A stretch of DNA of 63,775 bases from positions 19,158,226 through 19,222,000 of the forward strand of contig CM097888.1 of NCBI GenBank assembly GCA_044892525.1. The letters run 5' to 3'. A program made the position numbers and the translations under genes. This stretch comes from Schmidtea polychroa (Eukaryota). Every line of letters begins with the position of its first letter. Within the stretch, counting starts at the first letter, position 1. The notes under the pieces were generated by a model. The model was not told where the DNA came from. It searched no databases and was given only the letters and a program-made list of their open reading frames with translations. Shown here in pieces: positions 7,301 to 42,804 of the stretch.

Positions 7301-8616
7301 ATTAAAAAATATGAAAAATAACATTTCACTATTGTGTGATTATGTTTGACTTATTGACTTAGAAATCAATTCAAGTATTAAATATTGTTTAAATTTACCT
7401 TCTCCATAAAAGTCTAAAATACAGGATTACAACCGTCCTTCGAGGTGTTTATCCAGTTCAAGGAAGGAGTAAGAAAAAAGTGAGTTACTCTGTTACGTAT
7501 GCGACAAATAGAAAATTATCGTAAAGAAGTTCACTAAAAGTGGTTACAAACAAATAAACTTATTGGTGTTATGAAGTGTTGTTAAAATGTACTAGGATTG
7601 CTGATAGATTTGCCATAAACTCTTCCCAAAAACATCTTCATGACTATTAGTTTTTTTATTATCAGTGTGCCATGGCAACAAACAAGTTGGTAAAAATCAA
7701 TCGGAAAATTAATGAGCAGGTAAGCTTTATTACCATAACTACTCTTCATTGCACTTTCACTTTCGGATTCATGACTGATGATAGAAAATCTTAAATTATT
7801 TCTTATTTTGATAATTTATTCATGGATCTCTTAAATATTCAGTAAAGTCTTAGTTTTCAAAAATTTGGGCGGTGTTGCACTTCAGCATTTAACATTATCT
7901 TAAAAAATTTGAGGGAAATTTGCCATTTAAATCTATTCATCGAAACCTGGTTCAAATTCATCATTATCGGTCTTTCATCAGAAAAATTCAAATATTTTTC
8001 TCTGAAAAAAAAGCCATTCATGATTCTTGAAATGTCAAACGTCCAAGACTTACACTCATGCTCAGTGAATAACCTGGATTTCAAAGGTAGTCGTCGAACG
8101 TCTGTCTACTAGCCACTTCTGTCCCGCCACTTTTTAACCTCAGACATGAATCGACTACTATTTCGACCACCACTTAATTGATTTATTTTGATAACATTTC
8201 CATAAAATTTTAACTTTACTATTTTGTACACATAAAACAGTTAATAAGATGTTCACAGTTACAGAGTGTGCTGGGGTAGAACTGATCTTCAGTTCAAGTA
8301 GCTGAAACGTGATTGAAAGGCGTCGGAACATCGCATGCAAAAATAACATCAAGTAGAGTCAAACTCAAACACGTCCAAACATCAACAGTTAGCTCAAATA
8401 ATTCAAAGAAAACTAAATAAAATAATGAACCTNNNNNNNNNNNNNNNNNNNNNNNNNNNNNNNNNNNNNNNNNNNNNNNNNNNNNNNNNNNNNNNNNNNN
8501 NNNNNNNNNNNNNNNNNNNNNNNNNNNNNNNNNNNNNNNNNNNNNNNNNNNNNNNNNNNNNNNNNNNNNNNNNNNNNNNNNNNNNNNNNNNNNNNNNNNN
8601 NNNNNNNNNNNNNNNN

Positions 8617-9575
8617 TATTAAATTATATAGTTCAGATTAAAAGGAAAGCCGAAATTGAATGGCGGTCAAACAGAGAAGCAATGGCAAAGAAAGATATGA
8701 TAAAAAAAAAGGGTACAATCAGACATGAAATGGGAAAATGCGCAAACCGGAGGAAGTGGAATAAAGTGAAAAGTTATCGAAATTGAAGCTGGAAAACGGG
8801 AGAGGGGTAGATTAAGGGATGGTGAAGAAGACAGTGAGCAAGAAATTGTTAGAAAATGTGTAGAAAAGGTCGTAAAACAGACAAATGTGGAAAAACGTAA
8901 AATATTAATTAATTAATTAATTGGCTAATGGGAAACCCGAGCTAATGGGAAGCCCGAGCCAATGGAGAACCCGAGCGATGAAGAAAACCCGAGCACGGCA
9001 ATTTGGAAGGGTAAACAAACGAGGAATTCAGAGGGCAATTATCCAAACAATCGGATAAACGAGGGTAAACAAAAGACAGGGAATTACGAAGAGGGTCAAC
9101 AAAAATAGTCAATTAGGGAATGATAGCTGAAGAAGTCAAAACCAATTAGGTCAAAAATGGGGCAATTACAACGATTATGGGAGTATATAAGGAAACTCAA
9201 AATTCACATAATCGGCGATAGCCTTAGGTAGGGATACGAAGAAACAGACGATAGGAGTTCGAGGAATAAAAATAAAAAGGAAAAAGGAATTATAAGAGGA
9301 ATTTAGGAGTCAGAAAGGAATATTAAAGGAGTTCGGATCAGAGAGCGGAATCAAACAAAAGGTGAAACCTAATTTTTAATCGTACAAGGCCGAGACCTTC
9401 CAGAGCGGAGTTCGATCTGAAATTGTGTAAGAATTGTGATTAACCAACAGTGTGATTAATTGTTGAGTTGTGAATTGTTATAAAACAAATATACGTTGGG
9501 AGTTTTGTTTATTGATTTTGGAACACGTGGAGTCAGAGTAACCAACGGTTGATTTTAATATCATAAAACCCAACA
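8617..9575 (+). repeat. 5' LTR (first ~21 bp hidden in the gap)
   Basis: Matches 23897-24855 with no difference seen; ends ...AAAACCCAACA; contains GCTAATGGGAAACCCGA-type tandem repeats and TATATAA at ~9184. Confidence 0.95.
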
Positions 9576-9582
9576 TATATTT

Positions 9583-9600
9583 TGGTGAGCCCGACGTGAT
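9583..9600 (+). promoter_or_regulatory. Primer-binding site, tRNA-Trp-like
   Basis: TGGTGAGCCCGACGTGAT differs by one base from the classic tRNA-Trp PBS TGGTGACCCCGACGTGAT. It lies 7 nt after the LTR and is identical at 35858-35875. Confidence 0.85.
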
Positions 9601-9725
9601 TAAACGTTGGTGGGCGAATATTGAAGGGTGAAAGAGGTGAAAAAAATTAAAGTAATAAGAAAATTGAAAATAATTGGAAATTGGAAGAGGTAGTAATTAT
9701 CGATTATTAATTTTAATATTTAGCC

Positions 9726-11618
9726 GTGAGTGAATACAATTTGAGGAACCGAAAAGTAAAGATGGCCAGAGAGAACGCTGAGATGATAGATTTTGCCAGT
9801 TGTCAAAAATTACCGGTGAATCAGTATGGAGGAGACCCGGTTGATTTTGCCGATTTCATGGGCGATTATTATATGTACGCTTCGGCCTATGGGTGGTCAC
9901 AAGCCATAATGGTACAAAGATTGCCACTCTATTTAAAAGGAGCCGCAAGAGAAGCTTGGCAGCAAGTGGATAAAAAGACAATTGGAGATGATTGGGCCAA
10001 ACTCAAGGATGCGATGGCAATGAAATTGGTGGGAGGCGATATAAAAAGAATAATGCGCCAAAAATTTTATGCCAGAGTACAAAATCCAAATGAATCGGTA
10101 AGTGAATTTGCATACCATTTAACGACTTTAGCAGACAAAGCCTTCGAAGCAAAGCCTGAACAAGTTGAGATGGTAAAACAAGTCAGAGAACTGCTTCAAG
10201 ATCAATTTATAAATGGAGCCCTTCCTGAAATTAAAAAAGCCCTATGCTACGTGGATTTCTCGAATTTTGATGAACTTGTGAAAAAAGCCATGAAAATTGA
10301 ATTGAACTTGAAAAGTACCAGAAAATCCGAAGTATTTGCTGCCAATGCCGATAAAAGAGAAAGGTCGGTAACTCCAGTTCGAGAACAATGAGTATCAAAG
10401 AAACCAACCCAAACAATCAGTTCGCCAAGACCAAGTAATAAAGTCGAAATTAATAAAGCAGTGTTTGGGAGTCAGGTGGCTGCGAGATCTAACAGCATAG
10501 TATGCGATCACTGCAAGAAAGTGGGACACTATCCAAATCAATGCTGGTTTAAATATGGAAGAGACCCCAGCCCCAGAAGAAAGTTTGTAGAAAGTAAGCC
10601 AATTATTAATGACTTGAAATGCTATAGATGTGGGAAAATGGGCCACATAAGCAGGAATTGTTTTTCAGGTACCCCATCACCATCAAGATCCCCGTCGCCC
10701 CAACGAGATAAAGTGAACACTAATGGACAAATTCAATGTCATTCATGCAAAGGTTATGGCCACATGGCTCGATCATGCCCCCGAAACTCAGAAAGATTTA
10801 GCCGACCAATATTGAGGAAATCTATTAGATTTCAAGATGAATCAGCAAATACTAATGTTGCATATGCTCAAAAGGAGGAGTTTAAAGAGAAAATGGAAAA
10901 TGAATTTCGGGAAATGAGACAGAAATTAAACAAGCTTATGTCAAAGTTCGAATCAGATGAGGAAGCAGATTCGTGTATGGTGTACGAAAAAGAGGCCGAT
11001 GCGGGCGGAAATCTTAGTGATAAAGCAAAAAATGATCTATCAAATGAAAAGGCTGTTCTGTTGATAAAGAAAATAGAAAGATGGTATACCGGAATGAAAA
11101 CAGACCTTCCGAGATTGAAAGAGTGGATTACCGAACTAACTCAAATCCAACTCAGCCAAAGAAAATTGAAAATTATTTTAAACATGTGTGTCAAAGTTTA
11201 CAATAAATACCAAGACGATGAAATTGCAAAACTAATAAAGACATTGGGAAAAGCACTGAGATCCACAGAGAGCTTGACCGACATATTCGTAGAAACTACA
11301 GACGGAAGTGGCAGAAACTTTCAATTTACGATTAAACCTAGCGGGCAAATAAAGGATTTGAGGGAGCTCATTATGTCGAAATATAAAGCAAATGAAGTGC
11401 AAATAAATTTCAAAAAACGGTCGATGGGTCAATTGGCGGATGGAGAATATTTGGTCGATTGTGGGCTGATTCCTGGATATAAAAATGAGGTAAAGATATT
11501 CAATGTAATTAATCAATCAAATTCAGACTTTAAAGGATGGAGGAAAAATTACAGGATTTACGGGATAGTCTGTATATTGGAGATGAAGACGAAATTAGTA
11601 ATTGTCTGGAACGGATGA
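9726..11618 (+). CDS. gag: Gag (capsid + 3 CCHC knuckles) plus ubiquitin-like domain 1; in-frame TGA at 10389-10391
   Basis: ORFs 9726-10391 and 10461-11618 are in the same frame. Knuckles: CDHCKKVGHYPNQC, CYRCGKMGHISRNC, CHSCKGYGHMARSC. The TGA aligns with Trp in the sister element. Confidence 0.9.
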
Positions 11619-14600
11619 TAAGTTCGGAGATGGATCAAAAAGCGAAGGAACAATTATTCGAGAGTATTTTACCGTATATTCATAAAACGACGAACTATCA
11701 GGCGAAATTGAAAGAAATAGTACGAAAAATGGGCCGTGAGCACCGAGAGTCAGATGAGATACCCAGATCATTGGTAATAGCCTTAAATATGAATGGGAAA
11801 GTGGAGTACTTACAAGAACACTGGAGCATGAAGGTGTCGAAAGTACGACGGAAAGCGGTGGAAATGTTGGGTAATGATGGAATTGTTATACTAACTTTCA
11901 AGGGAGTTGAGTTAGATGACGATGAATACTTAATCAATTGTGGGTGCAGTCCGAATTATATAAATAATATCGAAGCCAAGAAACAGGTGAGGGAGGTATC
12001 CGAGAGTATAATAACCCATTGGCCGAGAATTACAAAGGATACGAAGGATGATGACATGGAAATTAAAAAGGAATTGGCTGAAGAACCTAACGACTACGAG
12101 TTAGAAGAGCATGACCCAAAAGATGAAGGCATAAATGACGAGCAAGACGAAATTACGAGTGAGGAGGTGGACGAAAATGATTCAGTAAATCAGGAAACTA
12201 ACCATATAACCGACGAGCTACTAGTGAGTGAAAGAGTGAAAAGTGAGTCGAATTTTGTAGAAGCGGAAAGTAAATTGAATGGTCGAAAGCGGTGTAAAAT
12301 CGAATTAATGGGTGGAAACGAAGAGAACGATAGAATAGATTCCAATGTGGTTGAAAAAACGGATCTGAATAATATGTCTCAAACAGAATCAATTTTGAAA
12401 GGGTTAGTAACAGAATTATATGCACTGGAAGAAGGAAATAGTTGTGACGATGAACTCATACATCAGCTTGCAGCGGTATTAAAACGTCGGCTTCCAGTAG
12501 TACTAAAGGATAATACCATAGAGAGGGTATTTTGCGATGAAACAGTAGTCAAGAGATTAATCAGGAACGGTTTGAACAGAGACATGGTACTAACAGTCCT
12601 TGCTTATGTTGTTCTAGAAATTGGCGTATATGGATGCTTGGAATGCGATAAATCGGAAAAATGGATAGTAAAAGCCACCGAAGTGGCGAATACATATGTG
12701 ACGGGTTGGATTATGCGTAATGGAGGATGGGAAAACTTGGTGCAAAAGTCGGAGACTGCGACAACTGGAAGAAATTATGAGCCGAAAAGAGGGAAAATAA
12801 TGTTTCCATGGCTAACCATGTCTATTTTGGTGATTTTAGGAGTTATTAATACCACAACGTCCTTGGAAGCGTACGATTGCTCCCAGACAGAAATGGGAAA
12901 AGTATATTCGCTAGTAGATGTAGCAGAGTGTCCAGACGCATATCCGAGGAACTTAAAATGGGCAAATGAAGTGACATACCACGTATACCAAGAAGCGGGA
13001 TTTAGACGAGTGAAAGTGAGAGAATGCACAGCAAAAAGAACTACGTTTATATTCTACTGTGGCAAATGGAGCCATTCGTCATTAATCAAAATGCACTCAA
13101 TTCCAAGAGTAATAGAGGTGACACGGGAAAACTGTTTGGCAGCGTTCCAAACAGGAGAGCTGAAAATAAATTCAGAAATTAATTTGAAGGCTAAATTAAA
13201 CTATAAAATTCGTGAAACTATAGCAGTTAAGGGGATAATCAAGGCAAATGGCGATTGCGAGGGTGAAGCGTATAAAGTAGGACAAACAGTCATTGATAAA
13301 ACCGTCGTGATAGAAGAATATGAAACCGAACTAAGGTATTTTGATGGATCATTCGATGACGATACGGGAAAATTGCAAACCCATCCATTTTGTAACATGA
13401 GGGAGAAAAGCTGCAACACAGGTGAGTCAATTCTGGTATATGAAGTTGATACCAAAAAATGCAATTTAGCACATTTAAAATCAATGCCTTTTAAAGAGAT
13501 AACGGGAGAGCAGATCCAAGAGAGACCAGAAAGCACAGTGCTAAACTCAGTCATGAATATGACACTTAGAATCACACCGATACGCTTGAAGAAAACGCCA
13601 ACGGTTTTAATGGCAATGTCCCGAAACGATGGGATGAGATTCTTAAGGAAGAGCGTAAATACGAAGTGTGGACAAACTGTTTATGAGACCAATTATAAAG
13701 GAATTTATTTATCCAAGAAAGTTGTCGAAGAAGCTCAAACAAAATTGTACGCAGAGGAAATTAAACTAACGAACTATTTCAATAATAAGATTGACTATTT
13801 ATTTCATTTTAGCCAAGATACAATTGAAAGTGTGTACAGGGAAATCATACTAAATGATTGCAAGTTAAACAAAGAAATCCTGCGAAACAGAATGGCGATG
13901 GCTATCACGAACCAGAATCTAGTTGCTCCAATGTTGATTTCGGAGAATGGAGTATTCGCTCGAATGCTTGGTGAAGCCTTATATAGTTATAAATGCAAGG
14001 CAGTACCTATTAAATTGATGAAATACAATCAATGCACAAATGAACTGCCTGTGAATGTTAATGGGAAGCTACGATTCATGGAGCCGGTGACACGAATTTT
14101 ATTGGAGGAGGACGCGAAACCGAGAGTGTTGCAGTGCAACAGATTATTGGCTCCACTATACCGCCTGACGCCCGAATCATGGATTGCACTACCTGATCAT
14201 AGAGGGGTGAAAGTCCCAGAAAAATTGGAGTTGACAAAATTAGAATATCTAATTAACTTTACATCGCTAGACAGCATGACTCAAAGTGGAATGTATTCAA
14301 GTGATGATATTGAAGCAGCACGCAGAAACTTATTATTCTCCTCGAAAAAGGAAAGGGTAATAACGAAAATAGTAGACACTATTCTCCCGAGTGGAACTGG
14401 AAAAGTGAATTACGACTATTTATTAACAGTGGATCATTACAAAAAGGCGACGTATAATACGATGAAAAAGATTTGGGGAAAATTTATGTTTATCGGGCAA
14501 GCCTGCGCGGGATTAATCGGAATATATGTGATCGGAATCATGATTAAAGTAATAGTTTCGCAGGTGTTATCAACACACAGATTATACACTATTACAGGTC

Positions 14601-16699
14601 TGTCGTGGAAGTTGGTTATTGGATGTATACCATTGTTAGCTAGATTTTTTATAACACATCATCAATATCGAGAGTTGGAAACGTTGAAAGCACAATTAAC
14701 GAAAAAGAGAAAGGTAAGTTATATTGATGTAACCACTACTTCTAATGAGGACAAAAGTGACAACGAGAACATCGGGGAATCGGCACCGTCATACGAGGAG
14801 GAACGGAATCAAGCCGATACATGGAAAAGTTATCAACTAATAAAAGAATCATTTTCTAATGATGGCAACCAGGATACATTCACTAGATTATGCATACCAA
14901 AATCATTTATACAACCACTACCAGCATATCCGGTAGATAAATTGATAGAAATGAAGCCAGTTGAGAACATTGCACTACAGTGTGAGAGAATCGATCCAAC
15001 GAGCGCAGAAATTGAAAGAAGAAATAGGTTAGGCTTACCTGGTAATTACGTACTAATGGCGTTAGCGAAAATTGGTAAACAACCACGAATAGTAATTCAA
15101 ATAAACAAAAACAGAGTTGAAGCCGTGGTGGATTCTGGATCGAGTCATACAATTATATCAGAAGAAATACTGTCGATGGAAGAGAAAAAACGAATCCAAC
15201 CATCCGATAGTGTAATCAGATCGTTATCCAGAAATGTGTTGCCAGTAATCGGAGAAATCGAAGTTGAACTGATAATCGGTGATAGAAGAATTAGACATAA
15301 CGTGCAAATTATGGAGAAAAGTCCTGTATTGTGCTTGATTGGAATGGATGTATTAGAACAATTAGACGGAATCTCACTTGATTTCAAAACTGGAAACCTG
15401 ATAGTGGGGAAAATAGGTGAAGTCATTCGTAATTCAGGAGAGGTGTTTCTAAACCAATCATTAACTATCCCACCTCAAACAGAAGTGGTATATTATGCTA
15501 GCGCGACTAGTGTCGATAATGATGAATTCATATTCGAACCCAGTCAAACGTTAATTGAAAAATACGAGACCCCAATGTGCGATGAAATCGTGAAAGTGGA
15601 AAACCAATTGCTACCAGTGCGAATAGCGAATTATGGTGATAAATCAATACGATTAAAGCCACAGACAAGATTGGGAAAACTGTCTCACATGTCGGTAGAA
15701 ACAGAAAAGAAAATTCCCAGAAACGTAAAAATTTATAAGGAACCCGAAGTTGTGAGCAAGGACCTGACCGAAAAACAAAAACAGGAATTTACAAAATTGT
15801 TGAGGAGATATCGAGATATTTTTGCGAAACATGAATACGACTTGGGGCTAACAAATATAATAGAGCACGAAATCCCGTTGCTGGATGAAACTCCGGTTAA
15901 AATAAAACCGTACAGAATCCCTTACATCCATCAAACCGAGAGTGATCGACAAATCAGGGCGATGAAAGAGTTTGGGATAATCAGAGACAGCTCCTCACCA
16001 TTTTCTTCGTCTATTGTAATAGTCAAGAAAAAGGACGGAGATTTAAGGTTTTGTGTCGATTATAGAAAACTGAATCAAGTAACAAGAAAGGATACTTATC
16101 CAATTCCCGTACCTCAAGAAATGTTTGATCAGATGGGAGAAGCCCAGTATTTTACGGTCATCGATTTGAACAAAGGCTATAATCAATTTAAAGTAAAAAA
16201 AGAAGATAGAAGGAAAACGGCATTTTCCGATGGTAAAGGCTTATATGAGTTCAATGTCTTGCCGTTTGGCTTAACGGGAGCCCCAGCTACATTCCAAAGA
16301 GGTATGAATTTTGTGTTGAGAGGCATCAGACATGCGCTAGTTTATATTGATGATATAATTATTTTTTCGAATAGCTTTGACGAGCATCTTGATGATGTGG
16401 AAACAGTATTTAAGCGACTTAAAAGCGCAAAATTGAAAATAAAACCATCAAAATGTGAATGGGGAAAATCTGAAGTAATATATGTTGGTCATATTATATC
16501 AAGAAGAGGTCTGCAAACTAATCCGGACAATATTAAAAAGGTGGAAGCGTATCCAATTCCAAAGAACGCGGACGAGGTGAGGCCATTTCTGGGATTAGCA
16601 AGCTATTATAGAAAGTTTATAAAGAATTTCTCGCATATCGCTCAGCCATTAAATTCGCTGTTAAAGAAAAATAATAAGTTTACATGGAGCAAAACCTAA
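11537..16699 (+). CDS. Polyprotein: Ubl2, acidic linker, Bcl-2-like domain, signal helix, chuvirus-like glycoprotein, aspartic protease, RT
   Basis: WIMRNGGWENLV (BH2-like); AYDC...SL..V.EC...YCGKWSH; TM segment WGKFMFIGQACAGLIGIYVIG; VVDSGS protease motif (15131); RFCVDYRKLN, LPFGL, VYIDD (16343). Confidence 0.9.
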   Translation: MEEKLQDLRDSLYIGDEDEISNCLERMISSEMDQKAKEQLFESILPYIHKTTNYQAKLKEIVRKMGREHRESDEIPRSLVIALNMNGKVEYLQEHWSMKVSKVRRKAVEMLGNDGIVILTFKGVELDDDEYLINCGCSPNYINNIEAKKQVREVSESIITHWPRITKDTKDDDMEIKKELAEEPNDYELEEHDPKDEGINDEQDEITSEEVDENDSVNQETNHITDELLVSERVKSESNFVEAESKLNGRKRCKIELMGGNEENDRIDSNVVEKTDLNNMSQTESILKGLVTELYALEEGNSCDDELIHQLAAVLKRRLPVVLKDNTIERVFCDETVVKRLIRNGLNRDMVLTVLAYVVLEIGVYGCLECDKSEKWIVKATEVANTYVTGWIMRNGGWENLVQKSETATTGRNYEPKRGKIMFPWLTMSILVILGVINTTTSLEAYDCSQTEMGKVYSLVDVAECPDAYPRNLKWANEVTYHVYQEAGFRRVKVRECTAKRTTFIFYCGKWSHSSLIKMHSIPRVIEVTRENCLAAFQTGELKINSEINLKAKLNYKIRETIAVKGIIKANGDCEGEAYKVGQTVIDKTVVIEEYETELRYFDGSFDDDTGKLQTHPFCNMREKSCNTGESILVYEVDTKKCNLAHLKSMPFKEITGEQIQERPESTVLNSVMNMTLRITPIRLKKTPTVLMAMSRNDGMRFLRKSVNTKCGQTVYETNYKGIYLSKKVVEEAQTKLYAEEIKLTNYFNNKIDYLFHFSQDTIESVYREIILNDCKLNKEILRNRMAMAITNQNLVAPMLISENGVFARMLGEALYSYKCKAVPIKLMKYNQCTNELPVNVNGKLRFMEPVTRILLEEDAKPRVLQCNRLLAPLYRLTPESWIALPDHRGVKVPEKLELTKLEYLINFTSLDSMTQSGMYSSDDIEAARRNLLFSSKKERVITKIVDTILPSGTGKVNYDYLLTVDHYKKATYNTMKKIWGKFMFIGQACAGLIGIYVIGIMIKVIVSQVLSTHRLYTITGLSWKLVIGCIPLLARFFITHHQYRELETLKAQLTKKRKVSYIDVTTTSNEDKSDNENIGESAPSYEEERNQADTWKSYQLIKESFSNDGNQDTFTRLCIPKSFIQPLPAYPVDKLIEMKPVENIALQCERIDPTSAEIERRNRLGLPGNYVLMALAKIGKQPRIVIQINKNRVEAVVDSGSSHTIISEEILSMEEKKRIQPSDSVIRSLSRNVLPVIGEIEVELIIGDRRIRHNVQIMEKSPVLCLIGMDVLEQLDGISLDFKTGNLIVGKIGEVIRNSGEVFLNQSLTIPPQTEVVYYASATSVDNDEFIFEPSQTLIEKYETPMCDEIVKVENQLLPVRIANYGDKSIRLKPQTRLGKLSHMSVETEKKIPRNVKIYKEPEVVSKDLTEKQKQEFTKLLRRYRDIFAKHEYDLGLTNIIEHEIPLLDETPVKIKPYRIPYIHQTESDRQIRAMKEFGIIRDSSSPFSSSIVIVKKKDGDLRFCVDYRKLNQVTRKDTYPIPVPQEMFDQMGEAQYFTVIDLNKGYNQFKVKKEDRRKTAFSDGKGLYEFNVLPFGLTGAPATFQRGMNFVLRGIRHALVYIDDIIIFSNSFDEHLDDVETVFKRLKSAKLKIKPSKCEWGKSEVIYVGHIISRRGLQTNPDNIKKVEAYPIPKNADEVRPFLGLASYYRKFIKNFSHIAQPLNSLLKKNNKFTWSKT

Positions 16700-18148
16700 C
16701 AATCAGCTTTTGACACGTTAAAGCAGAAATTAGTAATGGCACCTATTTTGCGATGCCCAGATTTTACGAAATCTTTCCTATTAATGACCGATGCCAGTAA
16801 CGTGGCATTGGGAGCGGTGTTAGGTCAGCAAGTGGACGGTGAAAAGGATCACGTAATAGCGTATGCAAGCAGATCTTTAAGGCCACATGAAAAAAATTAT
16901 TCAACAATCGAAAAAGAGACATTAGCGCTAGTTTACGGCATTACTACGTTTAGACAATATTTGCTGGGACGAAAATTCGTTGTATATACTGATCACAACC
17001 CCCTTCAGTGGTTAATGAAGCATAGAGATTCAACTAGTAAATTAATCAGATGGTCAATTGCTCTCCAAGAGTATGATTTCGAAATAAAATATAGAGCAGG
17101 AAAAGCGAATGCAAATGCCGATGCAATGTCAAGAATTCCCAATGGGCTTAGTGGAGAGGATACTGGTACAGAAAAGGTGGAAGGCACAATATTTGCAGCA
17201 ATCAAAGCCGTTAATAATGTGACTGAATTACAAAACGAACAGAAAAAGGATAACCGACTTAAACATTTCTTTGAACAAGCAATCACGGTCAGAAAGGAGA
17301 AAGATTTAAAACAGGTAATGAGTGAAAATCATAAATACATAATTCACGAGGGAATATTAAAATGCGTGAAAAACGACGAGATATTGATTATGATCCCGGA
17401 AAAACAGAGAGATTCACTGTTGATGCAATATCATGATGGAGCCCTAGGAGGACACTTGTCCGCTAGAAAAACCTTATCAAGACTGAAAATGAAGTACTAT
17501 TGGCCAATGATGGAAAAAGACGTAAAAGATTGGTGCAAAAATTGTAAGATATGTATAACTCGAAGAAATACAGGCAATAAAATTAAAGTACCTTTAAAAC
17601 CAATGTCTGTTCCAACCGCACCAATGGAGATGACTGCAATGGACATTGTTGGGCCGTTACCTGAAACAATAAAAGGAAATAAATGCATCGTAGTATTTTG
17701 TGATTATTTGACAAGATGGCCGGAAGCTTACGCCATACCAAATCAAAAGGCTGATACAGTAGCAAAAATATTTGTAGAGAACATTATTTTCCGATATGGT
17801 ACCCCAAAAAAGTTATTAACTGATCAAGGTAAAAATTTCCAAAGCGAATTATTTAAATCAATCACCGAGTTATTCGGAATCTGGAAGTTGAATACTTCGC
17901 CCTACCATCCACAAACCGATGGTTTAGTCGAGAGATTTAATGGCACATTGATAAATATGATTTCGTCGTATGTAAATAGCAAACAGAGAGATTGTGACGA
18001 CTACATAAAGCCTTGTTTGTTTGCATATAGAAATGCTGTCAACCCAAGTACGGGAGAGACACCTTTTTATTTAATGTACTTAAGACGAAACAACATGCCG
18101 ATAGATCTAAACTTCCGTTACTCAATATATGGAAGTACCCGAGTATAA
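16700..18148 (+). CDS. pol: RNase H and integrase, continuing pol past a premature TAA at 16697-16699
   Basis: TDASNVALGAVL, EKETLAL, YTDHNPL; HHCC zinc finger; MDIVGPL...TDQG...PYHPQTDGLVERFN. Confidence 0.95.
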   Translation, partial: QSAFDTLKQKLVMAPILRCPDFTKSFLLMTDASNVALGAVLGQQVDGEKDHVIAYASRSLRPHEKNYSTIEKETLALVYGITTFRQYLLGRKFVVYTDHNPLQWLMKHRDSTSKLIRWSIALQEYDFEIKYRAGKANANADAMSRIPNGLSGEDTGTEKVEGTIFAAIKAVNNVTELQNEQKKDNRLKHFFEQAITVRKEKDLKQVMSENHKYIIHEGILKCVKNDEILIMIPEKQRDSLLMQYHDGALGGHLSARKTLSRLKMKYYWPMMEKDVKDWCKNCKICITRRNTGNKIKVPLKPMSVPTAPMEMTAMDIVGPLPETIKGNKCIVVFCDYLTRWPEAYAIPNQKADTVAKIFVENIIFRYGTPKKLLTDQGKNFQSELFKSITELFGIWKLNTSPYHPQTDGLVERFNGTLINMISSYVNSKQRDCDDYIKPCLFAYRNAVNPSTGETPFYLMYLRRNNMPIDLNFRYSIYGSTRV

Positions 18149-18278
18149 TGCGATAATGCAAGAGAGGGTACAGTCGGTTTGGACAAAAGCCGGATTAACA
18201 ATAAAACATAATCAAGAGAAGTAAAAAGAAGCCTACGATAAGAAAACACGACCTCATGGAATAAAAATTGGAGATTTA

Positions 18279-19698
18279 GTGTATCTTAACAGACCAGAAC
18301 CACTCAAAGGTATGTCTCCAAAGTTACAGAGACCATTTAAAGTGCCATATAAAGTGTGTGATACAACCGAAACAAATTTGAAGTTATTACCGTTTAGGAG
18401 TAAAAAGGCAAATCCTATAATAGTTCATGCCAATCGTTGTAAATTGGTCCCGGAAAATGACGAAGAAAGATATCCATTACGATCGAAACGAAATGAAGAG
18501 AAGGCGGATACAAAAATTCAACAAAAATTCACCAAAAATCCAGTTCCAATCAGTTATCTTAACAGAGTGCTATTCACAACAGTCGTGCTAATGATGATGA
18601 CAAGGGTAAAAGGGATGAGAATGGATTTACCATATGCGATAACAAAAATACCCTTATGGGACAAGATCGATATTTATTCCACTTTTACAAATATTGTTTG
18701 GACTTATCAGTGCGAAATAATGGAGCAAATAGAAATTAGCAACGTGTTAGACCCGTTCACACCTTTCATTATTTTGAATTATGACAGAAATACGTATGCG
18801 GCACGAGAATTAAAAGTTAACTTCAAGTATCCATGGATCATAAAGCAGAATGAATCAGATTCGCTTGAAAAGTTTAATAGTCAAATTCGAATTATAATAC
18901 AAACTAACGAATTATGGAATACCGTGGAAATTGAGCCGATAATGAATGGTATAGATGTGTATTGGGTAGCCTTAGAAAGAGTAAAGGTGCAGGTCATATT
19001 TCAAAATTTTGTGGATATTCTAAACATGCGAAAGGCTTACACTCGGTATTACAATCTCAAAATGAACTCAAATTATACAATAACGGCTAATTACTACGAA
19101 AATGCGATGTATGATAATGGCACAATAATGAAAAATAAATGGACATTGTTTCAAACAGAGAATCAAATAATTCCCCTTAAGAATGTATCGAATCGTGTGA
19201 TTCTTGGAGTTCAAAACGGGTCAATAACAATTTATCGAAAATCCCCAGATGACGAAAGAGTGATTATCAGTAATGGAAAAAAAATTATCGTTTTGTTGGA
19301 TGCCGGTAAAAGCTATTTTTCATTAATTAGTTCTAATTTAGAATATGATTACCTGATAAAAATCAAATATCAACAACGGATATTCGAGCCATATCGATGG
19401 CAAACCGTTCTGGTGGAAACGAGAAGGGTACCAGGCCTGAAATCTGATGTAACCACAGCACGTCCAATTACTACAAAACAATACCAAGTTAACAATCGTG
19501 TAATAAATAAGCGGACTCAAATTGAGACTGATCAAGCTCTAATTATATGTGAATATTTGATATACCTCATCATTGACAGCATTTCTCATATTATCTCTGG
19601 TGTTCATAATAATAACAATCATTCTGTGCAAAAATAGACAGCATATTATAACTGATTTACGACTCGAGCCTTTCAGTGTGATCGAAACCACTGTATAA
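18279..19698 (+). CDS. Integrase C-terminus (GPY/F-like) fused to a signal peptide, ectodomain and TM helix (putative second membrane protein)
   Basis: SPKLQRPFKVPYKV, then hydrophobic VLFTTVVLMMMTRVKG. A shifted frame at 19564-19698 reads TSSLTAFLILSLVFIIITIILCKNR...TTV*. Confidence 0.7.
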
Positions 19699-19909
19699 AA
19701 TTACATTATAAAAATTGCATGCGTGTAAATAAATCTTATAAAACTAGTATGATTATAGATTAATAATAACATAAATTAGTATTTTGGTTGATCGGACTTC
19801 GCTATGGTGTGCTTGGCCTTGCGCGATAAAGAGTGTTTAAGAAAACTTTAATTATATTTAACTTCAGGAAGCCCAAGAGGAAGAGTCAATCAAAGAGTGT
19901 CGAAACTCA

Positions 19910-20113
19910 ATGAAAGAAATGAGAAGAAAAATGAAAGCAATGGAGAGGAAAATTGACGACTTGGAACTAGAGGATATGATTTGCAAAAGAAAGCTGGAAA
20001 GGATGGAAATTCTCCTGTTCCAATACGAAGCGGAAGTCGTGTTGCTAAGAATGCAGATACAGGGAAATGAATGCCCGACCGATGAGGAAAGAGAGATGGA
20101 TGAGTTAGAATAA
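19910..20113 (+). CDS. Small charged coiled-coil ORF inside the element
   Basis: 67 aa, heptad-like (MKEMRRKMKAMERKIDDLELE...); purine-rich like the element's coding region; the frame is open upstream to 19868. Confidence 0.4.
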   Translation: MKEMRRKMKAMERKIDDLELEDMICKRKLERMEILLFQYEAEVVLLRMQIQGNECPTDEEREMDELE

Positions 20114-20699
20114 TTTAATGATTAATAAAATTTACAATTTAAAACCTCACTTTTCGTCCTCGAAGTAGTAAAAGAGAAAGGCTAAACGATAATAACATTT
20201 ACATTAATAAAACTAAATGTTAAAAGAGAATAAATGAATAGAACAAAATAGTCAATAAACAAAATTTATTGATAAGTTAGTCCTCTAGCAGGACAAAACT
20301 CTCGATGTGGGAGTCGTCCACTACACCCCGAGGAGGTCTTTTTTCGAACCTCTTGAACCTGTGGGACAAGTCCACACAGGCAAAGGTACGTTTTAGACCC
20401 GAGCGAGGTGGCGCGGGTACAGGAAGCCTAAGTAAATCCTACAATAATTTTAATTATATAGAAACGAAACTAACCACATGAGGGGATCAAATTTTACTAA
20501 TGAGTCCTAAATTAAAGAATAAAATTAAATTAAGCAAAAAAAAAAATTTAATTAATTCCAACATAAAACAAAAGTAAAGTAAAAAACAGCATAAGTGAAA
20601 AGGCTAAAGCTGTGAGGAAAATTTATATTTATAAATAACTGGCAAATAAAAAACCAACATAAAATCTGTCGCTGTACTCATCATCGACCGTCGATATCC

Positions 20700-23110
20700 G
20701 GACATACAATCATAAAAGCTGAGATTGGATATGGGCGGGGATTTCTTTCATCATACCTGTTTCAAAATTTTACATTTCCTATAATCTTTAAAAATCTAAT
20801 AAATTAATACTTCAAGCATTCCACCAACTTAACTGTGTGAAAAAAAAATATTTTTTTTTGTTTCAGAAACATATACTAACACAATTCCTATAATAAAAAA
20901 ATCAAGCACACTTGCGATGAAATTTATCGTTTCAAAATATAACAGATTTTTCATATACATAAATTATCAAAATTTTTTACAAAACTTCCAAACTTTGTAT
21001 TTCAACTAAGATTTTTATTTTTGTAAAAATTTTCTTTTAAAAATATTGTGTATGGGAAAAAAAATATACAAAAATATCACCGTAACGCATTAGATAAAAA
21101 CCTGAATCACAATAAATTAAATCTTTAATAGTATAAATTAAATTAACTTATAATAAAAGTGCGTGTGGCATGGACAAAAATTGACATTAAATTAGAGCCA
21201 TGTCGTTAAATAACGGTTTATAATGTAGGTGGATAGAAATTATTACTGAGAGAATAGAAAGAAAGAATAACCGCACACAAACACGATTCACAAAATATCT
21301 ATAATAAAAAATACTCACAATAGGACATTGAATAAGATCAAAACTCCACACAATCAAAACTATTAAAATGTTATGTGCAAAATTCTGTTAAGTTATAATA
21401 AAGTTTTCACCAAAAAGCGGAAAAGTTATTCGGCAAAATCGAAGGAAATTAAATTGCATTTAAAAAAAATAATCTGAATTAGATAATGAAACAATAAATA
21501 CCTTTTTTTACTTTTATTTCGAAATGCTAATAAATTTTTTTTTAAAAAAAAAAAAAAATCTTTTATAAATATTCAATAAATTAAAAACCTGAAATTACAT
21601 ACAAAGTATTATAGATGAAACGAAAAGATAAATTAATTATATAAAATAAATTAAATTCTTATTCATTGTCATAACAAAGGCGATTTGGTCCAAACGATAT
21701 TGGGTTCACAGCAACGTGGAGGGCAAGCGACTGACGATTTGATTATTATTATTATTTCAATTTACTAAATTGAAAATAATCAACAATATATTAAAAATAT
21801 AAAATTAACCTCTAATATACTTTGACTCTGATCTGAATGTTCTACACTTGCTGAATAACTTTTGTATAAACCTCCATTTTTGGATGTAACTGAAACGAAA
21901 TAAATTATAAATTAAATAAATTCGTAATAATTAAATAATACAATAATTAGCAACACTTCTCAGGCTGTTTTATGTCGGAAACGTTAATAGTTGGCATACT
22001 CCTACTGGAAAACTTATTAAAAACGTAATTTGTTTAATAACTCCTTAATTGAAAACATTTTTAGAAACTTCTTCAGTACTTACATGAATTTTCTTATATT
22101 TATTACATTTAAAATGTAAAATACTTTATTTAAATTATTTTTTAAGAAAAATAATAATAATAATAATAATTAATAAAATAAAAATAATAAAATTAATATA
22201 AAAAAATAAAAATAATAAATAAAATAAGATAATGATATAAGTGATAAAAACGAAAGATCATGAATATGTGAAGGCAAATAAAAATCCATCAAATAAGCAC
22301 ACACGCATGCATCTAACACAACGGCGATTAGCGATATCAGTATATGAGCATGTCTGAGAAGTAGCATCATCAACACACAGCCTTAACAGTAAGGAATTCT
22401 GAAAATAATAAATAAAATAAGATAATGATATAAGCGATAAAAACGAAAAATCAATCAAAAATCAAAATCATAAATAATGTAAAAATAAATAAACAAAAAA
22501 ATAATGAAAATAATATTAATATTAATTATTATAATTATAAGTAGACTGAATACGAGAAAGGTCTTACCGATTCGTAGACACTGTTAAGTAAGCAAGCTGC
22601 TGCTCCCATTGCTGGTTCATAGTTTTTAACACATCCCACAAGAACCCAATAAGCAGATTTAAATCGTTCTCCTTTAGTATTTGAAATAGTTCCTTTAGCA
22701 ATCCAACATATGTGTCAATTAAAGTTTCCTGAAAATCTCCAGCAGATAGAAATGCCATTTTGAAAATATTGTGTAGTTGCTCAAACGGTAATATCTCACT
22801 GGAGAACTCAGGTATCTGACTGTAGAAATACAGCACCGTTTCAATGTCCTGAATTATTACGGATTTTTAGAGAATTTAAGTTAGATACAAGGCCTATTTA
22901 TACCTAAATTAAGATTAATAAATTAACAAACAAATAATTACCATTTCAAGAGGCAATTGATTATAATTGCCAACATGGGAGGCAGAACATTGTTACTCCC
23001 GGAATCGACATTGATAGCAAGAATCGACATTGAGAGCAAATATAATTTAGACATGATTGATCTGGTAAACATTGAGGGATAAAATTATCTTGCCGTCTCC
23101 AAACTGCAAT
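20700..23110 (-). pseudogene. Intron-containing host-like gene of unknown identity, antisense within the LTR element
   Basis: Exon-like blocks with AG and GT borders, e.g. 22565-22846 DIETVLYFYSQIPEF...YLTVSTNR/gtaag and 22265-22400. Further blocks at ~21810-22040 and ~20700-20760. Confidence 0.45.
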
Positions 23111-23224
23111 TTAATATTAAATTTAAAATTGTATTGTTTATTTACAAGGAAATAAATCAAACTTGTTGACATTATTATATTTATAAACACAGCGTGGAAT
23201 TAATATTGAATCTTTCGTTAAACT

Positions 23225-23490
23225 ATGGAAGAATTAGGAAAGTATATTCTTGATAAATCACTAATTTCCAATAAAGTATGCCGTTACGATGATGATTGTA
23301 TCGATCGACTTAATCATGTTTATACAACTACGCTTATAGGAATTTGTTTTTTTTTATGTTCACAAGGTAACTAGTTGGGAAACCTATCACTTGTTGGCTA
23401 CAGACGGAATTTTCTGACTCTCAAGTGGCATATGCGGAACATGTATGTTGAGTCATGAGTACTTACTACGTGAAATTGGATGAAATTTAA
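23225..23490 (+). pseudogene. inx: Innexin N-terminal fragment (frameshift and TGA at a conserved Trp)
   Basis: YDDDCIDRLNHVYTT...(fs)LVGKPITCWLQTEFSDSQVAYAEHVC*VMSTYYV matches the innexin DDDxxDRLN / VGxPIxCW / CWxxxTY signature. Confidence 0.88.
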
Positions 23491-23841
23491 TTTACTATTG
23501 AACGTAAATAAATTAAATATAAATAAAGTAAATAATTAACTTTTGAAAATGAAATGCTATGAAACACTTAAAAACTATTTAAATGAGAAAATTCACGAAT
23601 AAAGTAAAATCAGATTTTAAATAAAATGCTATGAAACACTTGATTGAAAATTTCAAAAAACTATTTAAATGAGAAAATTCACGAATAAATTAAAATCAGA
23701 TTTTTAAACATAAGAAAAAAAAATGTTGAATTTTAATAAAATGAACAAGACTCGAATGGGACTGAATTGTCGGTATGTCAATAGGTCACCTAATTTTCAG
23801 AAAATATAATAATATATTTTAAATTGAATAAGCATCACATA

Positions 23842-23872
23842 TTTCGAGGACGAAATTTTTTTTAAGGGAGAG
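23842..23872 (+). promoter_or_regulatory. Polypurine tract with upstream TTTCGAGGACGAAA motif
   Basis: TTTCGAGGACGAAATTTTTTTTAAGGGAGAG lies 3 nt before the TGTTG of the 3' LTR, as is typical for Gypsy elements. Confidence 0.75.
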
Positions 23873-23875
23873 CTA

Positions 23876-24855
23876 TGTTGAGGTTTGAAAATAAATTATT
23901 AAATTATATAGTTCAGATTAAAAGGAAAGCCGAAATTGAATGGCGGTCAAACAGAGAAGCAATGGCAAAGAAAGATATGATAAAAAAAAAGGGTACAATC
24001 AGACATGAAATGGGAAAATGCGCAAACCGGAGGAAGTGGAATAAAGTGAAAAGTTATCGAAATTGAAGCTGGAAAACGGGAGAGGGGTAGATTAAGGGAT
24101 GGTGAAGAAGACAGTGAGCAAGAAATTGTTAGAAAATGTGTAGAAAAGGTCGTAAAACAGACAAATGTGGAAAAACGTAAAATATTAATTAATTAATTAA
24201 TTGGCTAATGGGAAACCCGAGCTAATGGGAAGCCCGAGCCAATGGAGAACCCGAGCGATGAAGAAAACCCGAGCACGGCAATTTGGAAGGGTAAACAAAC
24301 GAGGAATTCAGAGGGCAATTATCCAAACAATCGGATAAACGAGGGTAAACAAAAGACAGGGAATTACGAAGAGGGTCAACAAAAATAGTCAATTAGGGAA
24401 TGATAGCTGAAGAAGTCAAAACCAATTAGGTCAAAAATGGGGCAATTACAACGATTATGGGAGTATATAAGGAAACTCAAAATTCACATAATCGGCGATA
24501 GCCTTAGGTAGGGATACGAAGAAACAGACGATAGGAGTTCGAGGAATAAAAATAAAAAGGAAAAAGGAATTATAAGAGGAATTTAGGAGTCAGAAAGGAA
24601 TATTAAAGGAGTTCGGATCAGAGAGCGGAATCAAACAAAAGGTGAAACCTAATTTTTAATCGTACAAGGCCGAGACCTTCCAGAGCGGAGTTCGATCTGA
24701 AATTGTGTAAGAATTGTGATTAACCAACAGTGTGATTAATTGTTGAGTTGTGAATTGTTATAAAACAAATATACGTTGGGAGTTTTGTTTATTGATTTTG
24801 GAACACGTGGAGTCAGAGTAACCAACGGTTGATTTTAATATCATAAAACCCAACA
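23876..24855 (+). repeat. 3' LTR (980 bp)
   Basis: Terminal inverted repeat TGTTG...CAACA; matches the 5' LTR. Confidence 0.95.
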
Positions 24856-25688: not shown

Positions 25689-26280
25689 ACATAGAAAATT
25701 GAATAGACAAATAAACCAAAATGAAAGGTAAAATTTCATAGTAAAATCAAAAAAAGGAAACTAGATTTTTCTTTGCTTATCTCTGAATTATTCTATCGTT
25801 TTATTTGTTGTTTTTTTCATAATTTGCATTTTAAAATTAAACATATTCCAATTTACAAACATAATAATATAAAGGAAAACTTTCCTTTTAATTAAACATA
25901 TTAAAAAAGCATCTTAAATGCAGAAATTAAAGTAAATACAAAGCTGCTTACAAATAAATCATATATAATCAATTAACAACTCCTTTTTTATAAAAAATTT
26001 AACATATTCTAAATACAAAATCATTTAAAAAAATAATTTTTACTAAGCTAATTACCAAAATATATGAAAATAGTGGTGAATTAAGATAAAATTCGCAAAA
26101 GTAATCAATGGTTATTTATACTCTAAAGAAATTTGAAAATAGATAAAATGAATCTAAAAAAAAGTTCTTATAATAAAAAAAATCAAATAAAGAATAATAT
26201 TATCAATAATTAATTTAATAATTATTGTTTAAATATTATTAATTATAATATAAAATATCAATTTTAGAATACATTTTATT

Positions 26281-27087
26281 ATGTCAGAGATATTGTATGA
26301 AAATTTTCGAAATGATGGTCGACGCCCAAATAATATTAGATCAATAACATCTCAAATAGGTGTGCATGCCAATTTTATTGATGATGGTTACGTATGCTTA
26401 GAACAAGGTAATACGAAAGTTATTGCGTCGATATATGGACCACGGGAATGTCGTAATCATTCTGATGCTAAGCATGATTCTGCTATTATTAGTTGTAAGT
26501 ATTTCAAGGGTCATACTGCCAATTTCAATGCTGGCCGTAGACATGGAAAACGAGATAATATAAGTGATTTGAATGCTGATTGTGTTAAAGTGTGTTTTTT
26601 ATACAATTATAATTTTATAAATTTAAATTAGAGTATAATGGAAAAGGTGATTGAGCTTCATTGGTATGGTGAAACTCAGATTGACATCAATATACTCGTT
26701 CTACAATCTGATGGTTCTGAGTTAGCCGTAGTTATTAACGCTGTGTCCCTAGCATTAATGGATGCTGGTATACGCATGAAAGATTTTGTCACTGCTAGTA
26801 CTGTCGGATTATTTGATCAAACAATTCTTGCGGATTTAAATGGTTTTGAAGAAAATCAGTTTTCTTTACCTTCTTTAACCATGGTTTTGCTCCCTAATAC
26901 TCCAAGCAATGAACGGTTCACTAAAATGTTTCCAAATAATATCGATCACATTAGTCAAGTAAATACACTTTATGTAGCTGCGGAAAGTGTTTGTGAAACG
27001 GTTTATAAAGAATTAAATAAACAAATCAAATTATATGTTGCAGCAAAATTGGATAAACAGCATGCTATTGAAGGCCGTTCGAATTAA
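26281..27087 (+). CDS. EXOSC4: Exosome complex component RRP41 (2 exons, 42-nt intron at 26590-26631)
   Basis: RNase PH motifs RNDGRRPN, LEQGNTKVIASIYGPRE, QIDINILVLQSDGS, INAVSLALMDAGI. Confidence 0.93.
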
Positions 27088-33910: not shown

Positions 33911-35857
33911 TGCAAAATATCACTAATTAATAATATATAATAAAAAAATGGTTTGTTAAAAAATAATTAGTTAAAACAAGTTTAAAATACTTCAAACTGA
34001 CGTATAAGTTTTGTTTAAAATGTAAGCAACGAGTATTGTAAAATTAATTTAATATTATTATAAATTTTGAATTAAAATTTTCTTAAAATTCTAGAAAAAA
34101 TCTATTATTAATAGAAAACAAATTTTTAAAAATAAATAAAGTTTGAGTCAATTTGAATTTTCTAGAAGTATCTCTTAAAATTATATAGGGAATTGTTTTG
34201 TAACAGTTATTGATGTATTTTTTAATTTATTTAACTTGAATTAAAAATATAATATTAACAAAAATGTATTGTGAGATTTTGATTGTTGATCTACCCGGGC
34301 TCAACAAAGGGGAGTGTCATTGTAGGTCAACTAGGACAATCATAGTCACCGCGAAATACGCTTAGTCAAATAATACGCGGTCATAAACAATCATGGTTCT
34401 TGTAAAGTTATTATATTCTGTTGTTGTGGTTGGTGAAATTTCTGACCCTTATTTGTATGTTCACCAATATATAAGTTGTTTTTTTTTATTGTGTTCTAAT
34501 TAAATTCATTATCCTCAAAAAGTTCTTAAGGTATGTTTAATAAACTATGGCTATGTTTCACTTAATTTATATTCAAACATTTTAGATGTGGTATTGTATG
34601 AACAGGTTTTAATAGATTAATGTATGATTCCTGATGACTTATAATCGTTTGAGGATAGAAAGTTTGTAAAGGCATAGTTGAGAAAGTAATTATAATAAGG
34701 GACCTGCGTAAATCGGACATATATCTTCTAACAATAGTCCGTGAACCCAGTAGAGTGCTCGACAATTACAGTGCAAGTAGTGCGCTCACTTTTTGCGAGC
34801 ACTCACCCTCTTGATACAGTACCAACGTTGATCATTCAACGGGTATCAAGCGGTAAACAATGTTGTATCTTGGGTTACGCTGGTAACAGCACTAAAGAGC
34901 AAAATATTTCATCATCAGTAACCCACCAAGTATTAGAAAATGCCAAAAGCAATTACGAAAGGCAAGAATCCGGAAATCCGAGAAAAATCAATAAATGGGA
35001 AAATCATCGAAATCGAATGGGAAAACGGGACAGGTATAGATTAGCTAATGGTCAACAAGATGATGATTAGGGATTTATCAGAAAATGGTTAGGAAGGGTC
35101 GAAAAAACATTCAAATGTGTGAAAACAGAAAACGTTAATTAATTAATTAATTGGCTAATGGAAAACCCGAGCTAATGGGAAACCCGAGCCAATGGAGAAC
35201 CCGAGAGATAAAGGAAACCCGAGCTGGGTAAACAAGAAGAAAAGCAAACAGAAGGAAGATTTGGGCCCATTAGCTTGACACAATGATTAATGGGAAAAGA
35301 GTAAGGAGAAGATAGCGCGCGTAGGAAGACCGGTAGGGCCATTAATTATCTGGATTCGTTGGACCATTATGGGTGACAGCCGAAGCAAATACGTAGGAGC
35401 AAATGTCAAACGAAAGATTGGCTCGGCAATAACCATTTGTCATCCCGATTTCGAGGAGTATATAAGGAAAGGGAAAATCAGAGAAAATCGGCATTTTGCC
35501 TCAGCTAGGGTTCGAAGAATCAGAGCGTAGGAAAAGTTGGTAAACGAATTAGGGAAAGTAGGGAAAAGAAGAAATAGAATAAAGAGTACTTAAAGGTGAA
35601 AAGGAATCAAACCAAACAGAAACCGAGGAAGACGTGAGTCGAGAGAATCTAAAGGACTAAAAGGTGAATATTATTTGTTTGCAAAGCATCAACGCCGAGC
35701 GGAGAATCGTATAAAACTTTGATTATTAATTGTAGCGTGGTGATAAATTGTGAACCTGTTGTTTCAATATACGTTGGGTCGTTCATTGTTTTGATTTAAA
35801 GAACACTAGGAGTCAGAGAGAACCGACTTGAAATAATCCAAAACCCAACATATATTC

Positions 35858-35875
35858 TGGTGAGCCCGACGTGAT
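35858..35875 (+). promoter_or_regulatory. Primer-binding site, tRNA-Trp-like
   Basis: TGGTGAGCCCGACGTGAT, 7 nt after the LTR end. Confidence 0.85.
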
Positions 35876-36142
35876 TGCAAGTCGACGGAAAATTATTGAA
35901 AGTTAGTGAAAAAAAAATAATTGTTGAAAAAAATAGTACCGACGTGATAGAAAGTCGGCGGTGTATTAAAAATTAGTGGAAAAGTTAATTATTGGAAAAG
36001 TACTACAGACCTGAGTGAAAGTTGGCTTTGAATTTTGAAAATAGTGTTAACGAGAGAGATATAGAAGGCTATTATTGGGAGATTTACAAGAAGTTGAAAA
36101 GTAATTTTAAATTATTGTTTAACGTTTGAAGTTTAGCTCAAA

Positions 36143-42776: not shown

Positions 42777-42804
42777 CCGTAGCGAATCACGGGAATATAG
42801 CTAG
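42777..42804 (+). mobile_element. Helitron 3' terminus
   Basis: CCGT(AGCGAATC)ACGG hairpin followed by CTAG|T; candidate 5' end TCTATATATTAAAA at 39541. Confidence 0.6.

Follow-up and report, generated by a model that had tools for sequence, protein, structure and literature searches.

An apparent second membrane glycoprotein, encoded after integrase, in a clade of fusogen-bearing Ty3/gypsy retrotransposons

Retroviruses and errantiviruses are taken to accomplish attachment and fusion with a single Env precursor. A retrotransposon locus of Schmidtea polychroa raises the question of whether an element that already carries a fusogen encodes a second surface protein, and what such a protein might do. 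The window analyzed here is a stretch of 63,775 nucleotides (assembly GCA_044892525.1, contig CM097888.1, positions 19,158,226 to 19,222,000, forward strand), and all coordinates refer to it. Transmission outside Drosophila is called elusive in an errantivirus account that covers elements with a gB-type Env (PMC13524379). A reading of the locus made from the sequence alone had proposed a second type I membrane protein hidden after the integrase, acting either as a separate attachment protein partnering the fusogen or as an immune-modulating surface protein. The protein itself was borne out: 18567-19698 (+) encodes a type I membrane protein that forms the C-terminal end of Pol. It lies in an LTR element with the following parts.

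8433-8616: run of N abutting the 5' LTR
about 8.6-24.9 kb (+): Ty3/gypsy LTR element, ~16.3 kb from LTR to LTR
8617-9575 (+): 5' LTR, its start hidden in the N gap
about 9583-9600 (+): primer-binding-site-like stretch, directly after the 5' LTR
9717-11618 (+): Gag (capsid, zinc knuckles), with an in-frame TGA at 10389
11300-11420 (+): ubiquitin-like stretch between Gag and the BCL-2-like region
12530-12745 (+): BCL-2-like stretch directly ahead of the Env signal
12797-14557 (+): gB-type/Monjiviricetes-like class III fusogen (PF24664, E 1.4e-88), in frame with protease and RT; by hydropathy, signal 12797-12862, ectodomain 12863-14464 and TM helix 14501-14557
15080-18148 (+): protease, RT, RNase H and integrase core, with an in-frame TAA at 16697
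23876-24855 (+): 3' LTR (TG...CA), polypurine tract just ahead

Pfam matches follow the order Gag capsid and zinc knuckles, Monjiviricetes-type fusion glycoprotein, protease, RT, RNase H and integrase, so that the fusogen gene sits between gag and pol, upstream of the protease, and the PR-RT-RNase H-IN order is that of Ty3/gypsy LTR retrotransposons. GC content was 0.33-0.40 in the element vs. 0.17-0.30 in the AT-rich flanks. The LTRs are paired and end in CA, with the start of the 5' LTR masked by the N gap, and they are accompanied by a polypurine tract and a primer-binding site that we take to be tRNA-Trp-like; ARAGORN found no tRNA. The copy is defective. Stop codons interrupt it in frame at 10389, 16697 and 18222, the reading frame shifts near 11.6, 18.1 and 19.56 kb, and it does not have the intact ORFs of GAG-ENV-POL errantiviruses; the relative P0200 is unbroken over the same domains. 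The 5' and 3' LTRs are identical at 960 of 961 positions despite the three stops and three frame changes inside, a state that could mean that the assembly was collapsed next to the N gap or that a copy already defective was mobilized in trans. The two stretches before Env had no Pfam match. The best PDB phmmer match was at E 0.014 for the BCL-2-like stretch (BCL-2 family members made up 59 of the 60 best matches listed) and at E 0.16, which is weak, for the ubiquitin-like one.

The end of pol and the membrane protein behind it consist of the following segments.

18225-18479 (+): integrase C-terminal GPY/F (SH3-like) domain, severed from the integrase core in this copy
18480-18566 (+): basic linker without an in-frame Met, putative protease release site for integrase
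18567-18614 (+): internal signal-peptide-like segment (hydrophobic 18567-18602, VKG 18606-18614)
18651-18905 (+): FN3-like domain 1 (AlphaFold2, fold searches, invariant W33 and Y76 in the alignment)
18909-19181 (+): FN3-like domain 2, the best modelled (single-domain superpositions; Pfam Fn3-I_PB4 at E 0.02, below cut-off)
19191-19436 (+): FN3-like domain 3 (AlphaFold2, fold searches, profile match to domain 2)
19437-19544 (+): disordered stalk (pLDDT <50 for residues 280-314)
19545-19572 (+): frame-break region between stalk and TM helix, where the best similarity to the P0002 C-terminus changes frame (weak local matches)
19573-19629 (+): TM helix in a different forward frame
19630-19698 (+): cytoplasmic tail of 22 residues ending ETTV-stop

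The open frame 18225-19637 includes the integrase C-terminal domain, and the ectodomain frame stops at 19635. The integrase C-terminal domain is 75, 61, and 62% identical to those of P0001, P0002 and P0003, respectively, and it matched Pfam MLVIN_C only at E 0.2. The GPY/F motif expected ahead of the linker reads VPY in this copy (18342-18350) and GPY in P0001-P0003. The fusion to integrase held in part: it is in frame in relatives, whereas in this copy the link from integrase core to C-terminal domain is broken by a frame change near 18100-18148 and the TAA at 18222, and the in-frame fusion therefore rests on relatives and not on the copy. The signal-like helix and VKG after the basic linker are present as described (12-residue Kyte-Doolittle score 2.22), and signal cleavage after VKG is plausible as a prediction. 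All nine relatives examined have a hydrophobic stretch, placed at +38 to +77 residues relative to the NRC motif. The five sequons are exactly those listed before (NES 18849, NYT 19071, NGT 19116, NVS 19182, NGS 19215), and the ectodomain has one Cys in 314 residues. The stalk, read earlier as Thr-rich, is there with a modest Ser/Thr content (7 of 38 residues).

The TM helix was found in a different frame, as the sequence-only reading had it, with a 19-residue Kyte-Doolittle score of 3.05, the strongest of three plus-strand segments above 2.0 in 8600-24300. The tail does not end at KNRQ, as had been thought; it runs 22 residues to the ETTV-stop at 19698. The six frames of 9600-23870 contain 208 open stretches of at least 30 aa, four of them with a Kyte-Doolittle score of at least 2.5 and nine with an [ST]x[VIL] end; one stretch, the TM/tail segment 19573-19698, has both. 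Similarity of the TM/tail peptide to the tails of relatives was not significant (104, 289, and 324 of 2000 shuffles reached the score), so the assignment rests on position and architecture. The equivalent helix is in frame at residue 865 of P0002 and 773 of P0003, and a single C-terminal TM helix with a short tail is in frame in P0002, P0003 and P0126 and out of frame in the studied copy. Programmed frameshifting into the TM frame is unlikely because relatives encode the stalk-TM junction in one frame.

Two word-index searches with the ectodomain gave no relatives: none of 697 candidates, and none of 1223 candidates among longer proteins, reached E ≤ 1. A search with the integrase among longer proteins, with a query length filter that favours long proteins, gave 1497 matches, and of the 120 listed the top 11 were 51-70% identical. 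P0002 and P0003 have an unbroken run of integrase, signal, ectodomain, stalk, TM helix and a tail ending STLV; P0001 contains the first one and a half ectodomain domains and then its sequence ends. Exhaustive phmmer searching gave 84 matches at E ≤ 0.001; P0126 (E 1.8e-13) and P0150 (E 3.5e-6) were new homologues of the ectodomain, and the remaining matches were to the integrase end. Bacterial metagenome-assembled-genome labels on P0001 and P0131 were rejected; by their domains both are retroelement polyproteins, and binning contamination is probable.

It had been stated in advance that other copies without the TM frame, or an ectodomain unconserved in the family, would count against the proposal. 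Relatives keep the TM helix in frame, and the ectodomain is matched by 5 of 199 proteins compared, at 22-27% identity to the window. A neutral passenger, in which a host exon or random read-through follows integrase and a hydrophobic stretch lies in the next frame by chance, would fit the decay of this copy (three in-frame stops, three frame changes), the non-significant tail similarity and the two empty word-index searches. It does not fit the open, TM-anchored homologous ORFs of relatives at 22-38% identity, or the unique TM-plus-PDZ-end stretch among 208 sitting exactly where relatives have theirs. By these comparisons the passenger explanation appears largely refuted, and we give it very little probability. 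We concluded, with high confidence, that the architecture behind integrase is a predicted signal, three FN3 domains, a stalk, a TM helix and a short tail ending in S/T-x-V.

The earlier reading had called the ectodomain beta-rich and had pointed to AlphaFold and Foldseek as a check. AlphaFold2 modelling of the single-frame ectodomain, with an alignment of six sequences (the ectodomain and five relatives), gave three FN3-like beta-sandwiches at residues about 17-101, 103-193 and 197-278 (mean pLDDT 71.0, pTM 0.54; the five models ranged from 71.0 to 46.3). Without an alignment, single-sequence AlphaFold2 gave a pLDDT of 35.0 and no usable fold. The best Foldseek matches in the PDB were fibronectin FN3 triplets (E 4e-9), with 350 matches at E ≤ 0.001; whole-model TM-scores were low (0.2-0.3), as expected since inter-domain angles differ. 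Among 48,161 chains compared by VIA-align, CD45 and fibronectin FN3 domains ranked first (Z 9.6-9.2) and 26 chains reached Z ≥ 8, and domain 2 alone superposed on FN3 domains with an rmsd of 2.4-2.9 Å over 73-80 residues. Model and fold searches thus agree on a ~90-residue, seven-stranded beta-sandwich superposing on FN3. The profile of domain 2 matched that of domain 3 (probability 76%, E 2e-5); domains 1 and 3 matched with a probability of only 16%.

Pfam placed the ectodomain in no significant family, and fn3 (PF00041) did not reach its curated cut-off, with no match in the window and E 0.21 in P0001. Language-model neighbours (Atlas) of P0126 were FN3 membrane proteins at 0.90, which is weak on the tool's scale, and those of the window ectodomain were unnamed phage clusters only (0.88). 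Comparison of the alignment profile with PDB sequences gave integrase-containing chains only among the best 60 of 117 matches because the alignment includes integrase columns. We consider it highly probable from the models that the ectodomain of the window's subclade is three tandem FN3 domains.

Identity to the fold matches was 6-18%, with fibronectin, phosphatase, cytokine and phage proteins all among them, and VIA-align Z-scores from 9.6 to 7.5 were spread across many families (CD45/RPTP, class II cytokine receptor and Dscam/sidekick among the candidates compared). No FN3 donor family, cellular or viral, stood out in Foldseek, the viral fold library or VIA-align. With a generic fold and scattered matches, we name no donor or ligand. 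The top matches do include the FN3 pairs of CD45, IL-22R1, IL-20R, IFNAR1 and IFNGR, and they would suit a decoy receptor or a modulator of immunity or signalling. A protein of this kind would sit on the producer cell, imitate a receptor of the cytokine, phosphatase or adhesion type without having its tail, and protect the cell by soaking up ligand or competing for PDZ scaffolds, with no part in entry. Class I cytokine receptors have four conserved Cys and a WSxWS motif. One Cys in 314 residues and no WSxWS rule out a copy of that class, which counts against the decoy.

In the relatives in which the ectodomain is 22-27% identical, the integrase is 59-73% identical; identity to more distant relatives was 38-41% for Env and 60-61% for RT. 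By these figures the ectodomain is diverging much faster than Env or Pol, and this would fit the arms race of a decoy. Cover of the integrase core was at least 85% in 129 proteins; we built a tree from the window and the 45 best of these, leaving out the other 84. The window falls in a 16-row clade (support 98/94) and, within it, in a four-member subclade (100/98). A post-integrase hydrophobic helix is found in 12 of the 15 other clade rows, or 11 of 14 distinct members (P0007 and P0200 are identical in this tree and counted as one), vs. 2 of 30 rows outside the clade. Clade members without the helix are P0001, P0006 and P0123, all three of which may be incomplete, and it is absent from the sister group P0013 and P0139. 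The post-integrase membrane protein marks this clade, with all counts inflated by kinship. Retention of a membrane anchor and stalk across the clade again speaks against the decoy, since a ligand sink could be secreted.

Eleven of the 14 clade tails contain an FN3 strand-F-like motif, with 17 matches vs. 0.39 expected by shuffling; it is absent from all 121 tails outside the clade and appears a single time in the Pol of the clade itself (14,759 residues). The pattern was written after the sequences had been seen. With a profile of 15 FN3 repeats, P0010 and P0011 scored 11.3 vs. a control maximum of 11.1 among 2919. Because the motif is post hoc and the profile scores are at control level, we assign FN3 to the subclade, and its presence in clade members beyond is suggested. 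The ectodomain of P0008 looks unrelated.

The same slot holds other cargo in relatives: extra aspartic proteases in P0004, P0005, P0006, P0121 and P0122, ankyrins also in P0004, and a TRAF complete with RING, zf-TRAF and MATH in P0137, which shares 77% identity with the window at the integrase end. TRAF, ankyrin and protease cargo would make the post-integrase slot a host-manipulation site, which suits a decoy, as do the BCL-2-like and ubiquitin-like stretches before Env. A captured IAP of Burro1 is said to protect stem cells, according to a citation in the text of PMC13465017. Taken together, a decoy or modulator is possible and, in our judgement, distinctly less probable than an even bet. 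The stretch after integrase is in any case a cargo site ignored by env surveys. Outside the clade, P0039 has an Ig-like domain with a TM helix after integrase (E 0.024), P0189 a rhabdovirus-G-like domain after a chromodomain (E 0.001), and P0151 a large Cys-rich post-integrase glycoprotein without a Pfam match.

A C-terminal S/T-x-hydrophobic sequence is the class I PDZ ligand motif. The ETTV-stop end fits a motif of this type, and [ST]x[VIL] ends occur in 7 of 11 TM-bearing distinct clade members vs. 5 of 174 non-clade proteins (kinship uncorrected), the S/T-x-V end being missing in the other 4 of 11. This suggests that the tail is a candidate scaffold-binding end. The protein might then be a trafficking or assembly partner, or a superinfection block: the tail would escort Env to a membrane domain, the signal anchor would tether Pol at the budding site, or the protein would occupy the receptor used by the element. 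The obligate in-frame position behind integrase and a tail end that is conserved while the ectodomain is not would agree with such a role. It leaves the retention of one to three folded FN3 domains with several sequons unexplained, and in P0013 an Env of the same kind exists without the module; we regard it as improbable.

With an FN3 rod raised on a stalk and a tail of PDZ type, and in the absence of a signalling domain, the protein is most simply read as an adhesion or attachment protein at a junctional membrane. The fold and the tail fit adhesion/attachment and immune modulation alike, and we put the chance of an adhesion/attachment factor beside the fusogen at about even. Such a separate adhesion protein may serve to reach or hold neighbouring cells.

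Fusogen, Pol and the second membrane protein are encoded in one ORF in P0200 (3735 aa), P0121 and P0131. The Env of P0013, without the module, indicates that the fusogen may work alone. The window and four of nine relatives lack an in-frame Met upstream of the signal, and polyprotein processing is favoured on these grounds over separate initiation. Four of the nine do have an upstream Met, and in one the hydrophobic stretch itself opens with a Met, which leaves some room for separate initiation. The membrane protein would be "separate", as had been proposed, only as a processed product; relatives encode it within a single polyprotein. Co-folding of the Env and FN3 ectodomains gave a score of 0.00 in both runs, with no alignment used and the partner fold uncertain, and weighs neither for nor against a partnership of the two.

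We propose that an FN3-repeat type I membrane protein was added to the end of the polyprotein in a Gag-Env-Pol Ty3/gypsy clade. The polyprotein would thread the ER membrane twice by means of two internal signals and two anchors, with Gag cytosolic, Env luminal, PR-RT-IN a cytosolic loop, the FN3 domains luminal and the tail cytosolic. Env TM is followed by a second weak hydrophobic segment (Kyte-Doolittle 1.59-1.75), which would upset this topology if it spans the membrane. Signal peptidase would free the FN3 N-terminus, the element's protease would trim integrase off the signal anchor, and roughly one FN3 protein would be made per Env. The PDZ-type tail could dock the protein on junctional or polarity scaffolds while the FN3 rod binds a surface ligand on the neighbouring cell, placing particles or producer membrane at cell contacts where Env performs fusion. 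A two-component envelope of this kind would consist of a virus-derived class III fusogen and an FN3 adhesion protein that stems from a host, evolves fast and docks on PDZ domains by its tail, both cut from one polyprotein. Particles would form at cell-cell junctions and cross them into selected targets such as stem or germ cells. This reading is tentative, and we would not yet bet on it. If true, it would make the post-integrase slot a swappable tropism cassette. A host-derived second surface protein kept in frame across the clade would be a testable candidate for tropism or host manipulation.

The closest known system is Burro/GYPSM1, a giant planarian Ty3/gypsy element. As far as the text of its account goes (PMC6431247), its Env, related to mononegavirus glycoproteins, is encoded between gag and pol without a change of frame, domains resembling BCL-2 and ubiquitin/SUMO come before Env, and a large polyprotein carries host-derived domains. 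The studied element is alike in its in-frame Env (the window has Env, PR and RT in a single frame, and P0200 has Gag-Env-Pol within one ORF) and in the ankyrin of P0004 and TRAF/MATH of P0137 among its relatives; the weak ubiquitin-like and BCL-2-like matches before Env, if real, would be a further likeness. It differs in size, ~16.3 kb vs. >30 kb, and its longest relative has 3735 aa vs. 4873-5140 aa for the Burro polyproteins given there; no BIR, MATH or ankyrin domain was found in the window ORFs scanned. Compared with the Burro of that text, it resembles a small relative, and we do not file it as Burro because of its size and BIR/MATH/ankyrin content. GAG-ENV-POL errantiviruses with an HSV/gB-type Env are reported from Nematoda, Bryozoa and Platyhelminthes in the main text of PMC13524379; they share domain order and Env class with the studied element, and chromodomains are noted there C-terminal to integrase, unlike the FN3 module.

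Extra membrane proteins downstream of pol are described for the bdelloid ORF3s (in the text of PMC5408684), and the MDG1-group sORF2 is described as driving transfer at cell contacts (in that of PMC11952523). They are alike in being extra post-pol membrane proteins, and different, according to these texts, in being separate or small ORFs standing in place of Env. The studied clade, unlike these, has an FN3 glycoprotein fused to integrase and, alongside it, a full fusogen. Viral entry by two components is familiar from herpesvirus gB with gD/gH-gL and paramyxovirus F with HN/G, and HTLV-1 Env and rabies G are viral glycoproteins with PDZ-binding tails. Separate proteins for fusion and for attachment, together with the scaffold-binding tail, make this a functional analogy only; no sequence or fold relation to these attachment proteins was found, and the studied fold is the cellular-type FN3. 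The planarian nidovirus PSCNV, a polyprotein virus, is described in the text of PMC6211748 as having captured ankyrin and fibronectin-named modules; it differs in being an RNA virus, and its modules are fibronectin type II, a fold unrelated to FN3.

Figures aside, neither the Burro text (PMC6431247) nor the errantivirus text (PMC13524379) mentions a post-integrase FN3 membrane protein, and the main text of the latter does not contain the terms "fibronectin", "FN3", "PDZ" or "Burro". Literature searches on retrotransposons with fibronectin type III, on the PDZ-binding motif and on Burro with fibronectin listed no description in a title or the opening of an abstract, within a coverage that did not extend to the main Burro papers. 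The second membrane glycoprotein in this fusogen-bearing retrotransposon clade is real, conserved and apparently undescribed. What goes beyond the sequence-only reading is the FN3 fold, the PDZ-type ending and the spread across the clade; should the Burro literature already annotate the module, only the fold, the tail of PDZ type and the survey of the clade would still be new.

Behind the membrane protein, a coiled-coil-like short ORF of 67 aa from its ATG follows directly at 19911-20113 (+), with weak Pfam matches only, and 20100-23870, ~3.8 kb inside the element, is AT-rich and mostly non-coding. This part contains an antisense open frame of 100 aa at 22564-22866 without a Pfam match and, just inside the 3' LTR, a broken innexin-like N-terminal fragment at 23222-23500 (+) (Pfam Innexin, E 0.012 on 23374-23445), whose upstream piece had no Pfam or PDB match. 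If real, the innexin-like fragment would be a second captured cell-junction gene. There is no second copy of the ectodomain within the window; a second, diverged family member (73-79%) at 34967-37604 (+) consists of LTR remnants and gag only and is without the ectodomain. The surroundings contain a host gene for an exosome RRP41-like RNase PH at 26254-27087 (+) and a host EST1/SMG-like gene in pieces at 42977-52423 (+), with remnants of DDE, hAT and another LTR integrase lying between at 40645-50495.
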